This document shows, piece by piece, positions 16,801-63,774 of a stretch of 64,000 nt of DNA (position 1 is the first letter of the stretch; every line of letters starts with the position of its first letter). The notes under the pieces are model-generated. The model was not told where the DNA came from, ran no database searches, and saw only the letters and a program-made list of their open reading frames with translations. The DNA comes from Eledone cirrhosa. Lineage: Eukaryota. The position numbers and the translations under genes are program-made. The stretch spans positions 201,438,001-201,502,000 of the forward strand of contig OZ024741.1 in assembly GCA_964016885.1 (NCBI GenBank), in the 5' to 3' direction.

Positions 16801-17182
16801 ACCAAGTTTTTTCACTGGTCACTTTACTGTGAGTGGCCAGCTATTCTGTATGTAAACACACAGACAAACCGGTTTTTAGAGTCATACTGGTTTTTGAGGA
16901 AACACCTTTCCTCTATTCTCCAGAAAGCCAGACAAGGAATATTGGACTAGTTTCGTTGTTGTTACAACTCATCAGCAATATTTACCTATCTTCCGGCCTC
17001 TCTAGAGAATCGTAAAAGCACATATCGTTATATGCTTTTTCTATGAAAATTAGTAGTGGGCAGACTAATTTGCATAGAGTGTGAGTAAGTACCGGTTCAA
17101 CGGAGACGATAAAAACAAATAACGAAACGAAATTAAATTTCGTTTCGTTTGTAACTCACTTTTGTATGACTGACGCTTAAAC
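16801..17182 (-). mobile_element. ORF-less HHR element (retrozyme-like), diverged relative of 23787-24520
   Basis: Same order of motifs: gaaatttaatttc palindrome, ccgg, tatgcaaattag, HHR, downstream hairpins. Confidence 0.6.
16940..16980 (-). ncRNA. Minimal type I hammerhead ribozyme
   Basis: Reverse complement: tattg-CTGATGA-gttg taacaa caac-GAAA-CTAG-TC-caata; all core bases canonical. Confidence 0.85.
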
Positions 17183-17500
17183 AATTAAGTAACTAGTAAC
17201 TAAGGACAAGATAAAGACATGCAGATACACATAAGAACCAAAATAATTTAAAAACTAGACACGCACAGATAGAACAAGCAACCGACTAATGACAAGTAAA
17301 TAAACATATAAATAAACACACACTCACAAACCCAGATATAACACATGTGCAGCCCATGTACATAGCACACAGCTCACAGCTCACAAATCAAAATGATGTA
17401 GGACAGAACAAAAGGGAAACAGAAAATAACAAATTAGTCACTGAGGAGGTCACAAAATGTGTGATGAAAGAGCTTTCACAATAAACAAATAAACAACCAT
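17183..17500 (+). mobile_element. PLE 3' UTR/pLTR fragment with HHR motif (17441-17477)
   Basis: Homologous to 21245-21500; CTGAGGA-gtcaca/tgtgat-GAAA-GAGCTT-TC. Confidence 0.65.
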
Positions 17501-18119
17501 CAACATCATCGTCATGGCCCTTTGAATTACATGTGCAGCCCATATGATAGTCTTAGTTACATATTCATCATCATCATCTTCATCATCGTTATCATTTTAA
17601 TGTCTGCTTTCCCTGCTCGTAAAGGTTGGACAGGTCTACATAGACCAAGTCAGTACTAAAGCCGGACTACAGATCTCCTAAACAATTCAGGGATCTACAT
17701 CTTACTTATGTATGATTTTACATTCTATTGAGTACACAGGAGAGGTTGTCATGACTTTTACTCAACAGAGGGTCCTCCAAACCCTTTGATTGGCAAGCTT
17801 TCTACAACTGGATGCCCTTCCTATCACCAACCACTTTACAGCATGTATTGGGTGCATTTATCATGTTGATCAATAAACACTAGGGAGGCTGTTATTTCCT
17901 TAACACGACTGACAGGTCTTCCCAACCCTTTGTTTGGCAAGCTTTCTAGAACTGGATGCCCTTGCCATCACCAACAACTCCACAAGAGAACAGCAGATAG
18001 AAATGTGGGGTTGGGAGTTATGGGATATGTAGTGAAGGTAGTGAAGGGGTGTTGAGAATTGCTGTTAGTGATTGGTAGTCGAAAAGGGAATGCAGGAGTA
18101 GGTCAGACCACATTCTATG

Positions 18120-20060
18120 TTGTAGATCAAGTCTTCATCAGCACTGCATAGCGCCAGCCCTCACAGTCTTTAGTCATTTCTGTTGTGAGGTTTAGTCTTC
18201 CATGGGTCCCAGCCACCGGGGTTTCTCTGCATTTCTTTATGCAGCTGTTATCTTCCATGTGCATTACACGTCCTCACCAACACAGTCTTCTCTCTTGCAC
18301 ACTTCATTCAATGCCAAGTTTTTCTCTCAATTTTCTTCTGCTATGTTGTTCAAGCACACTGACATTACTGATCCATTGGAGCATGCTCAACTTTCTAGCC
18401 TCCACAGGTCTTTTGCAGTCAAGGCCTCTGTTTCACTGCCATGTAACATTGAAGTTCGCACACAGACGTCATACAGTTTACCTTTCACTCTGAGAGAATA
18501 GCATTTTGTTGCTAGATGTCTAAACTTCTTCCAGCTTATTCTCATGCTAGCTATCCCACTTCCAGCATATCATTTTTCACTGCTAATTTGATCGCTTAGG
18601 TAGCGAAAGCTATCAACAATTTATAGGGATCCCCACTTCCCACTGGCAGCTGAAGGAATCTGTTCCATGAGTGTTCACTTCCCCTATGCATCTGCCTCAT
18701 GTAAAGTCTACCTTTTCCGTTAACATACCTCTTACATCTTTTGTGTGCACTTTATCGAATTTCTGCCCGCCCCTTTTGACATATCGAAGAAGGCTACTTT
18801 CCAAGTGGTACACCTTCCTGTCTTCTTTTTGACTTATTAAGACTTTTGTCTTTGCTAAATTTACTTTTAGGCCTTTCAACTCTAGGTTCTTCTTCCATGA
18901 TTCAAATTCTGCCTCTTACTGATTCAGCTATGAAAACTAAGTCATCAACATATAGGAGCTCCCATGGAGTACCAGTTTTAAACTCCTCTGTGATGGCCTG
19001 AAGGACAATGATAAACAGGAGTGGACTAAGGACTGATCTCTGGTAGACCCCCACCTGCACTTCAAATTCATCACTGTACTTATTGACATAGCGTGGGACC
19101 CTGCCAAAAGCCTTCTTCAGATCTACAAATGCTTGATACAGTGGCTTACTCTTAGCTAAGTACCTCTCCTGTAGTTGTCTCATTAGAAAGGGAGCATTGA
19201 TAATAACCATACCTGGCATAAATCCAAACTGCATCTCATCTAACTTGATTCTTTCCCTAATTAGTTGTGCTATAACCTTTCAGCAACTTTCATGACTTGG
19301 TCCATCAACTAGATATCTCTGAAATTACTTCTCTCTAGTGCATCTCCAGTGGAGACATGTGGCCTAGTGGTAAGGGTATTGGACTTACGATCATAGCGTG
19401 GTTGGTTCAATTCCTGGCTTGCGTGTTGTGTTTTTGAGCAAAACACTTCATTTTACGTTGCTCCAGTATACCCAGCCAAAAATGAGTACTAGCAATAGCT
19501 GGGGATTTGACCCTGTGATGGACTGGCATCCTGTCCAGAGGGGAGTCTTGTACTCTCAGTTGCTTCACACCATGTAACCAGGATAAGCACTAGCCAAATG
19601 AGCCTTCTGGCTTAAGACAGACTTTAAACTTTTAGTGCATCTCCTTTGCCCTTCTAACAATTTACAATGATATTGCTGCACCATTGAAGTCACCAACTGT
19701 GATCATAAGATCACTGTCATCTGTCATTGAGGTAGACTGTATGAGGACCTCATAGAAAAGGTATTTTTGTTTGTCAACAAGTCCTTCTTGTGGGGCATAT
19801 GCAGTTAGTATAGTGGCTGTCTAAGTTTAATTATTCTATCACTCAGTCTGACTACCTCAATTACCTGGTCTACCCATCTCTCAATGAAGAGGATTCCTAC
19901 CCAACCCACCAAATTTGTTGCTACCCAACCAGAAGAATTTGTACTGGAGTTCCTTGCCTGTGATGAATCTGACGAAACCGTTCCTCCATCTTACTTCTTG
20001 CTCACAACACACATCTACTTCTCTCCTCTCTAGCATGTAGACAATCTCATTGCACTTACA
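18120..20060 (-). mobile_element. Multiply deleted RTE LINE
   Basis: ORF 18902-19234 QFGFMPG..FVDLKKAF..SPLLFIIVL..LLYVDDL; APE motifs near 19800-20050. Confidence 0.8.
19351..19633 (+). mobile_element. tRNA-derived SINE inserted in the RTE LINE
   Basis: A box tggcctagtgg, B box ggttcaattcc, CORE-like ttgagcaaaacactt; flanked by target duplication tagtgcatctcc (19336 and 19634). Confidence 0.8.
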
Positions 20061-20064
20061 TTAT

Positions 20065-61700: not shown

Positions 61701-62570
61701 GAGTGTGAAAGGATGAAAATAGAAACTTGGTAGAGGGAATGGAATATGGATTCATGGTGGTTTTCTATGTCTGAAATAGAGAAGAGTGTTTGCATGCTTA
61801 TCCAGAAACAAATGGTGTGTTCATATTCCTTCTTTGGAATGCTCCAGCTTTGTGCTCCATTTCCCATACAGAACAACAGTCAGACCCATAGACGACTGTA
61901 GTAGAAGTAGTAGTAGTAGTTACAATAGATATTCAGCTAACAGCTACAAGGTGTTTGCGCTGGTGTGTTTGATTGGTCTAGGTGACTATGGGGGATGATG
62001 CCGATAGGGGAGGAAAATACAAGGCATTCAGATGGGAGAGAAAAGGTTGTCAAATACCGAGTGGAAGATTAATGAATGAATGTGGTAGGCTTCTATAGTC
62101 ATCGGCTTATTTACAGTTATATGAAGAGGGGGAAGCATGAGAAATATAAGCATGGCATTTACGAAAGGAGAGAGGGATGAGAAAAATCTATGGCTGATGA
62201 GGAAATGAAAATAACGGAAGCAGCATGTTATGAAAACTATCAATTCCTTGGTTAGTCAACTCTCTGTGAGTGTGTAGATATGTAATATGTTGATGCATAT
62301 ATGCACGTTTATGAGTATATACATATATATATATATATATATATATATATATATATATATATATATATATATATATATATATATATATATATATATATAT
62401 ACACAGACACACATTTATGCTTTGTGGTTCACCAATGGTTAGAACTGGTAATTCCGCTTGGGGCAGGAATGGAGTTAAATACCAGGCTGGGCTCGTAATG
62501 TTCCTTTAAAGTTTTCAGTCCAGCCTCCCGTTATTTTAATCAAATTAATAATGAATATATATATATATAT

Positions 62571-63007
62571 ATATATTGGTAAACGGAATAGAAAATGCTG
62601 ACAAATTGTTCACAGTTGAAAAATGGTTTAATTAGGAATAAAAGAGTATTAGTGATTGTATGGGTTAGTATTCAGTTGTGGTTTTAAGTTTTTAAGTTTT
62701 TACCGGTTGCGCATTTCTAAATGCTTTTCAAAAATAATTTTGAGATAGAGTGTCCGTGCTGTTTGCTCTGATCTGAGCAAACAGCACGGACACTCTATCT
62801 CAAAATTATTTTTGAAAAGCATTTAGAAATGCGCAACCGGTAAAAACTTAAAAACTTAAAACCACAACTGAATACTAACCCATACAATCACTAATACTCT
62901 TTTATTCCTAATTAAACCATTTTTCAACTGTGAACAATTTGTCAGCATTTTCTATTCCGTTTACCAATATATAATAACTTGTGTGTTACACCTCTATTCT
63001 TTTAACT
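62571..63007. mobile_element. ~400-bp palindrome with two divergent HHR-like motifs plus one tail
   Basis: Arms 62571-62768 and 62775-62972 with a 6-nt spacer; ttt-TTGAAAA-gcattt/aaatgc-GCAA-CCGG-TA-aaa. Confidence 0.8.
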
Positions 63008-63459
63008 ATATATATATATATATATATATATATATATATATATATATATATATATATATATATATATATATATATATATATATATATATATATATATATA
63101 TATATATATATATATATATATAAATATATATATATATATATATATATATATATATATATATATATATATATATATATGAGCAAGACATGGTCACCTGACC
63201 CAACTTGCCTCAAATGAAACAACCCGTCTAATCCATGCTAGCGTGGAAAGTGGTCATTAAACAATGATGATGATGATATATATATATATATGTGTGTGTG
63301 TGTGTGTGTGTGTGTGTGTGTGTTCGTGAGTGAATAATGATAATATCATAATATTATTAATATTAGGTTTGTTCACAAGCAAACAGCCTCATAAAACACC
63401 ACGCAGTAGAGGTAATGACGTCATCCTTTTGTTCCAGCGGTAGCTAAGAGAAAACAATC

Positions 63460-63514
63460 GACAATTTACAATTGTTAATTGTTTCGGGACGTCTTGCTCC
63501 TTGTCAAGATTGTG
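63460..63514 (-). ncRNA. Type I hammerhead, U3:A8 variant, full stem III, in a retrozyme-like element (about 63325-63708)
   Basis: Reverse complement: acaatc-TTGACAA-ggagc aagac gtccc-GAAA-CAATT AAC AATTG-TA-aattgt. Confidence 0.65.
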
Positions 63515-63774
63515 TATTCTCTCGTTTCTGCTATCTGCTGGAACTGCTGAGAATACACAGTATTGTCAAATGTATACATCGGCTGATTAGCCACATTTGC
63601 ATATTTTAGTGATTTTAAGGCTGGCTTTGCCGAAAATTAAAAAACAAAATTTGTTTTCGCTCTTAACTTAGCTCTCCACCACGTTAAGAGTGAAAACAAA
63701 TTTTGTTTATATATATATAAGGAAAAGAAATCGAAAATGCAACTGGAGTCTTTTTTTTAAATATTTATTTATTT

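Follow-up and report, generated by a model that had tools for sequence, protein, structure and literature searches.

Retrozymes without long terminal repeats (non-LTR retrozymes), defined as a class in PMC7229834 (Cervera and de la Pena 2020) and in 10.64898/2026.07.22.740005 (Li, Clavereau and Pollet 2026), are the closest described relatives of a group of hammerhead-ribozyme repeats that we analyzed in the octopus Eledone cirrhosa, in a stretch of 64,000 nucleotides (nt) from contig OZ024741.1 of assembly GCA_964016885.1 (positions 201,438,001 to 201,502,000, forward strand; hereafter the window). As the main texts of these two surveys present them, metazoan non-LTR retrozymes are tandem, low-GC, non-coding units with one type I hammerhead each, present in thousands of copies in genomes that also hold Penelope-like elements. 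The repeats studied here are alike in all these features, with units of 311-467 nt, a likeness that is based on sequence, with cleavage and circular RNA as predictions. Neither main text gives an internal promoter or mentions octopus, whereas the repeats in the window have boxes of the host's own type and a mapped two-site tail.

That a hammerhead repeat can contain a promoter is not new, because precedents exist in newts and schistosomes (PMC2220036, PMC6765202, PMC6155905). Newt satellite 2 is likewise a tandem hammerhead repeat, of ~330 bp, with an internal promoter of the small nuclear RNA (snRNA) type, according to Coats, Zhang and Epstein (1994) as cited in PMC2220036, and PMC6765202 assigns it to RNA polymerase II (Pol II). 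In E. cirrhosa, by contrast, the octamer is a proximal box of the U6, U6atac and RNase MRP type, about 72 nt before the predicted start, and a U1-type layout is resembled only by two families, D and F, and weakly. The Sm-alpha hammerhead repeats of schistosomes also have the promoter at the 3' end of the cleaved monomer and need tandem copies; they differ in being described as SINE-like (short interspersed nuclear element) and as using RNA polymerase III (Pol III), and the account in PMC6765202 describes no octamer-TATA layout. Penelope pseudo-LTRs, as described in PMC11167929 and PMC8557442, share tandem and inverted copies, microsatellite targets, a two-site tail, a hammerhead and a promoter within the repeat, but the units here contain no open reading frame (ORF), and other sampled hammerhead clusters lack an exact octamer at this distance. 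Our literature search found no report on cephalopod retrozyme promoters; the supplements of the two retrozyme surveys may list cephalopod units.

Sequence comparison identifies the elements as homologous non-LTR retrozymes that are very abundant, free of protein-coding sequence and equipped with a predicted hammerhead. The conserved block upstream of the ribozyme probably has two jobs: its 5' half appears to be the place where a Penelope-type reverse transcriptase (RT) begins copying, and its octamer and TATA-like box form a likely built-in DNA promoter. An initial annotation of the window had proposed a retrozyme superfamily with an internal promoter, or alternatively a conserved RNA structure. 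The superfamily is supported by sequence comparison, and the promoter is a prediction from the same source. The two options are not exclusive, the 5' half pointing to a role at the RNA level and the octamer with its TATA-like box resembling DNA elements.

Octamer and TATA-like box upstream of the hammerhead

The octamer ATGCAAAT is found exactly at 23893-23900 (+), 24340-24347 (+), 17068-17075 (-) and 63595-63602 (-), and hammerhead cores start at 23981, 24428, 16975 (-) and 63507 (-). The distances from octamer end to core (80, 80, 92 and 87 nt) are those given initially, and the other motifs of the block (AAGAGTG/AAAGTG/AAGAGCG, AAATTT, TTTTCGG/CTCCG, CCGG and TCAC) each lie where they had been placed; the TCAC of the 63.6 kb copy is TCGC in the majority of relatives. 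The octamer copies of the window are laid out as follows.

23797..24243, +, first unit of family A (period 447 nt); a second, partial unit follows
23797..23855, +, tail of family A with AAGAGTG and the AAATTT hairpin, situated between the two principal 3'-end sites, the putative RT start sites
23856..23880, +, T-tract with CCGG hairpin, adjoining the second end site on its 3' side; present also in families without the octamer
23892..23903, +, TATGCAAATTAG box; same letters as the box at -78 of one host U6 gene
23918..23926, +, imperfect inverted arm; differs between subfamilies while the octamer is constant
23935..23940, +, TATA-like box, 42 nt past the octamer start; predicted start site 23965
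23962..24025, +, type I hammerhead with its core at 23981-24011 and cleavage predicted after 24011; matches Rfam HH9 at 20.4 bits (E 0.012), below the gathering threshold
24244..24519, +, family A unit 2; octamer 24340-24347, core 24428, mutated TATA-like box; broken off at a CA repeat
16770..17195, -, family B copy; octamer 17068-17075, TATA-like box 17027-17034, core 16945-16975; 467-nt period elsewhere
63325..63670, -, family C copy; octamer 63595-63602, decayed TATA-like box at ~63552-63560, core from 63507

Rfam at gathering thresholds returned no match in the window, and relaxation to E up to 1 gave mainly microsatellite microRNA noise; the family B hammerhead matches HH9 at 40 bits (E 1e-6), again below gathering.

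By count alone the octamer shows no enrichment in the window (7 against 5.4 expected, with 29 of 100 shuffles reaching 7), but its position relative to hammerheads is non-random. We sampled the 3.0 Gb host assembly as 140 stretches of 10 kb at fixed steps (1.4 Mb), mainly from large chromosomes, where a type I hammerhead motif scan yields 140 hits in 40 clusters (shuffled sequence gives 5). An exact octamer starts 75-105 nt upstream in 12 of the 140 hits, compared with 0.0012 per hit by chance, and these 12 are confined to 3 of the 40 clusters, all of this superfamily.

Each hammerhead unit has a core with helices I and II. Unit periods are ~442-447 nt in family A, 467 in B, 342-360 in C, 319 in D, 311 in F and ~440-442 in H; family J (~330 nt) and the degraded family L are known from one locus each. 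The relatives F, H, I, J and L were found in the sampled stretches and in the flanks of fetched loci. The surroundings of the octamer had been called poorly alignable, which is overstated: families A, B, C, H, I and J can be aligned from the octamer into the downstream body at 42-66% pairwise identity. In this six-family alignment, hammerhead region included, 36 of 190 ungapped columns are invariant, and the longest invariant run, TATGCAAAT, spans 9 columns, the next-longest 2.

The 3' half of the block consists of TATGCAAATNAG and a TATA-like box (8-mer matrix) 42-43 nt further, a spacing kept in all six families, with 80-100 nt from octamer to core. Family L, found afterwards, has an octamer-TATA spacing of 42 nt. 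In family H (25 aligned loci, L300-L324) the octamer unit is present three times, as direct copies of 33 nt; CTGCT(A/G)AT, itself octamer-like, stands before each octamer. The predicted pairing partners of the octamer differ in most lineages and include mismatches and G-U pairs; its C4 is unpaired in B, A2 and J, and the last octamer of family H switches arm in the whole-circle fold. The subfamily variants 23921 A>T and 23923 G>T (~24% of depth) change the 3' arm only, and 2 of 25 A-like copies have a private octamer change. A variant listing of the octamer region at a 2% threshold gives at least two rows, where a wider listing shows more for this stretch, and is no proof of invariance.

Two candidate elements were rejected. 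A second TCAG 16 nt past the octamer start, considered as a U1-type box, is not supported by the U1-type core matrix and is missing from B and J, and a distal element suggested by eye in family J likewise found no support.

Comparison with host small-RNA promoters

We fetched the host genes for U1, U2, U5, U6, U6atac, RNase MRP and RNase P. The 15 non-redundant U1/U2/U5 promoters share three boxes, one resembling AATTAAAT at around -91, TCAGT at around -57 and a TATA-like one at around -31. None of them contains an octamer within 330 nt, which contradicts the vertebrate analogy of the octamer as distal element of a U1-type promoter. The newt satellite 2 promoter reportedly uses a distal octamer.

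Three distinct U6 promoters, together with the best U6atac locus, contain the motif TATG(C/G)(A/T)AAT(T/G)AG, its ATG at -76 to -78 and TATA at -30; in the one RNase MRP gene, TATGCAAATGAG stands at -78, and TATA again lies at -30. The RNase MRP promoter was held out, being fetched once the host matrix was fixed. Scored by this host-only matrix, the TATGCAAATKAG box reaches 14.4-17.2 bits in families A, B, C, H, I and J against 15.8-17.2 bits in the host, and the scores of the repeat families are attained at 4e-7 to 4e-6 of 2.73 million masked background positions. In the host, this box is thus proximal in U6, U6atac and RNase MRP genes; the octamer-to-TATA spacing of the repeats differs from that of the host by 4-5 nt. 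The host's distal element TTAYYTCCCTTG, at about -260 to -290 in U6-type promoters, scores at most 5.5 bits on the ribozyme strand of A, B, C, H, I and J, and the RNase MRP gene has no close match to it. With the U1-type core matrix, families A, B and C do not stand out, and nor does a 592-nt repeat, G (L193:1089-2273), a tandem hammerhead with neither octamer nor U1-type match.

The octamer and TATA evidence taken together agrees more closely with a DNA promoter than with an RNA helix, because the octamer is invariant though its pairing varies, the TATA-like box keeps a fixed distance, the unit is triplicated in H and the box matches that of host genes.

Further variants of these promoters were seen in the host. 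An old repeat (L139:7892-8163 (-), L270:713-981 (-) and L165:1100-1228 (-)) has an octamer box and a TATA that are 47 nt apart, as in host U6 genes, with a distal-element-like word soon after and possibly a decayed hammerhead core. The RNase P RNA gene (L127) has two distal elements and a U1-type TCAGT box but no octamer, and the gene is followed by a T9 run. In a U6 array (L102, L103), an insertion of ~190 nt moves the octamer box to -270 in some units.

Copy ends and the Penelope-type tail

Copy ends were mapped over all loci minus 13 overlapping ones, with positions counted relative to the next core. The 3' ends are concentrated in family A at -184 (23), -192 (9) and -125 (19), or 51 of 63; in family B at three peaks, -202/-207 (7) and -133 (6), 13 of 14; in family H at -257 (16) and -226 (14), 30 of 60; in family D at -141 (16) and -112 (13), 29 of 38; and in family F at two sites with 2 ends each (4 of 4). 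Those of family C are diffuse, the largest peak holding 6 of 26. The two sites flank the AAGAGTG/AAATTT part and stop just 5' of the TTTTCGG-CCGG hairpin, mostly followed by (TA)n. An end at 23855 is likewise seen in public contigs, along with loose ends followed by (AT)n, and AT microhomology blurs the exact ends. The tails so delimited measure 26-31 nt in D, F and H and 59-74 nt in A and B; D and F, which have no octamer, share this half of the block and also show two-site ends.

For a Penelope-like element in vitro, reverse transcription begins at a pair of internal sites, which delimit the tail seen in the genome, as described in PMC11167929, and tails, inverted partners and microsatellite targets are known features of such elements (as covered in PMC8557442). 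The repeats here show the two-site tail, inverted 5'-truncated partners and AT-rich or microsatellite targets. We infer that the 5' half of the block is the start region for a Penelope-type enzyme, because copy 3' ends cluster there as in the Penelope two-site tail. The window itself holds a fragment with Pfam matches to a Penelope-type RT and GIY-YIG domain (40480-41760, -); five of six ORF fragments tested have no Pfam match. Penelope-like ORF fragments lie at 20085-21247, 33210-34586 and 40477-41760.

Among the 5' ends of family H pieces, 12 fall just after the predicted cut site (positions 33-61) compared with 2 in the 63 nt before it, a density that may hint at linear templates in a set of loci (L300-L324 and other H) selected by query.

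Abundance of the repeats

Family A has 1844 candidate matches, and the best of the 51 listed are 98-99% identical; its copies are tandem and inverted and sited in (TA)n. Family B arrays exceed 10 units, and family C is older, with 78-87% identity to relatives. No ORF of at least 150 amino acids covers a unit. Sampled copies spanning the promoter-ribozyme part number 19 in A, 4 in B, 0 in C, 5 in H, 8 in D and 21 in F (1.4 Mb), from which we extrapolate roughly tens of thousands of genome-wide copies of A, D and F.

Families D and F, an octamer-less promoter-like type

The unit at 39 kb had been taken as a looser version of the octamer block. It has no octamer and shares only the T-tract and CCGG; judged from its sequence motifs, family D is a different promoter-like type. 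Its features in the window are the following.

39343..39720, +, copy of family D lacking the octamer (period 319 nt); AATCAG 39463-39468, TATAAG 39492-39497, core from 39543
39583-39592, +, match to the host distal element in this copy, within the 3' arm of helix I
38889..39342, -, partner copy of family D in inverted orientation, with its core from 39090 and ending in (TA)n

Families D and F both have the distal-element match in the 3' arm of helix I, just past the cut site, at 12.4 bits in D (background 1e-4) and 17.7 bits in F (background 3e-6). A distal element just after the cut site scores above 3 bits in only 2 of 40 hammerhead clusters, those of F and a D relative. The host element stands at -234 to -289 in 14 host promoters. 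In tandem units the distance from distal element to TCAGT-type box is 199 nt in D and 198 nt in F, within the range of host U1/U2 genes (175-212); the two D copies of the window are inverted, and the distal element is not at that distance. The spacings of the core boxes (AATTAAAT, TCAGT and TATA) fit, but their scores are weak (9.9 and 4.0, against 25-36 for 15 host promoters and 5.6 for RNase P), and 71-76 of 1.6 million background positions do as well as D and F on the four-part promoter score. These data no more than suggest a U1/U2-type promoter layout, which would be rebuilt solely in tandem units. The cores of families C and D (63507 -, 39543 + and 39090 -) have U3/A8 instead of C3/G8, likely a compensatory pair.

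Other hammerhead repeats in the window

Further type I hammerheads without the octamer block lie at 4660, 14120, 32389, 36556, 37243, 53438 and 55199. Repeat family E (30900-31240, -, and 63727-64000, -) has hammerhead-like cores at 31020 and 63808; in the 31 kb copy the core is preceded by TGGCGCGAAA, which we take to be E2F-like, a CCAAT motif and a TATA-like box. Family E possibly represents a third promoter design, of a cell-cycle type.

Discussion

In the two-job explanation that we favor, a POU-type factor would bind the octamer, and transcription would start ~30 nt past the TATA-like box, 16-27 nt before the core and ~72 nt after the octamer start, inside extended helix I. The transcript would continue into the next unit, hammerheads would cut out monomers that may circularize, and a Penelope enzyme would nick (TA)n and begin copying at the tail sites. 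Copying past one unit would restore both promoter and ribozyme.

Several observations weigh against this explanation. Neither the predicted start (0 copy 5' ends for each of six families, with ~0.2-1.6 expected) nor the cut site shows an accumulation of such ends. The octamer lies inside a predicted hairpin, partly paired, in every family, as an RNA role would have it. The TATA-like box scores low in B (-0.3), as it does in the family A copy at 24.3 kb (0.9), and subfamily A3 shows a loss of 8 nt from the TATA-core interval, with TGG replacing TAG. By their alignment the octamer families share ancestry and count as one capture, not as independent ones. No autonomous partner element was identified, though no genome-wide search was aimed at one. 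The host matrix comes from 4 promoters judged to be real genes by TATA and distal element, and 13 other U6 and 8 other U6atac matches, which are probably retrocopies, have no box at that place. The repeats fall outside the host U6-type class by the spacing test, because box and TATA are 46-48 nt apart in 5 of 5 host promoters, compared with 42-43 nt in the repeats, and the composite window of 42-48 nt was chosen after this difference had been seen.

As to the polymerase, the combination of an octamer around -70 and TATA at -30 also occurs with Pol II, in immunoglobulin heavy-chain promoters, and the Pol II and Pol III snRNA promoters of Drosophila are told apart by a spacing difference of 4 bp. 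A genuine Pol III promoter of the U6 type, with the T-run at the second end site as terminator and leaky termination spreading whole units, is a possibility we consider less likely than not. It would account for the box at host U6, U6atac and RNase MRP genes and its absence from U1/U2/U5, for the second 3'-end site lying at T-runs in A, B, C, H and D, and it has a parallel in schistosome hammerhead repeats, which appear Pol III-driven in the account of PMC6765202. However, T5-T6 runs lie within B, C, H and D units, family F has only T3 at its second end site, the spacing is not that of U6, and 34 of 66 A and 20 of 60 H pieces are longer than one monomer, in a selection biased to long pieces. 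We lean slightly to Pol II because those T5-T6 runs lie within units that spread whole.

It is improbable that the whole block, octamer included, is an RNA element for folding, circularization or Penelope recognition, with the host-promoter match a relic or coincidence. The partial pairing noted above and the position of the block next to the putative RT start sites would suit such an element, and the required RNA of a Penelope-like element lies 3' of its start sites in PMC11167929, as the block does here; yet the octamer keeps its letters while its partners and register change, D and F have the same two-site ends without it, and the fixed TATA distance, the triplication and the identity with the U6/MRP box would be left unexplained. 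Slightly less probable still is the inherited remnant, no longer functional, of a formerly captured promoter or Penelope pseudo-LTR, in repeats transcribed by read-through from adjacent genes: the homology of all octamer families, the un-host-like spacing and the traceless 5' ends are compatible with it, but a neutral relic should decay like its flanks, whereas the octamer is the only long invariant run at this level of identity and its unit was amplified threefold in H.

Returning to the two-job explanation, we tentatively suggest, with more doubt than confidence, that one superfamily, on a common chassis for Penelope priming, has exchanged one host small-RNA promoter design for another. D and F would hold their distal enhancer in helix I, so that tandem arrangement (~310-320 nt) rebuilds the promoter and its geometry sets monomer length. 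Families A, B, C, H, I and J would have lost this enhancer for the U6/MRP octamer box with a spacing 4-5 nt shorter, possibly with a switch of polymerase, which would have freed unit length (~330-467 nt) and permitted enhancer multiplication as in H.

Animal retrozymes are abundant RNAs in every tissue tested, as reported in PMC7229834, and the main texts of that survey and of 10.64898/2026.07.22.740005 name no promoter for these RNAs; a box that also occurs at U6 and RNase MRP genes makes the promoter question directly testable. The predicted start site and the natural variants (triplicated box, alternative promoter type and shifted spacing) aid such tests, and a working description of the host's snRNA promoters is a by-product. 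The mapped tail provides a testable start site for the Penelope-driven copying of a non-autonomous RNA.

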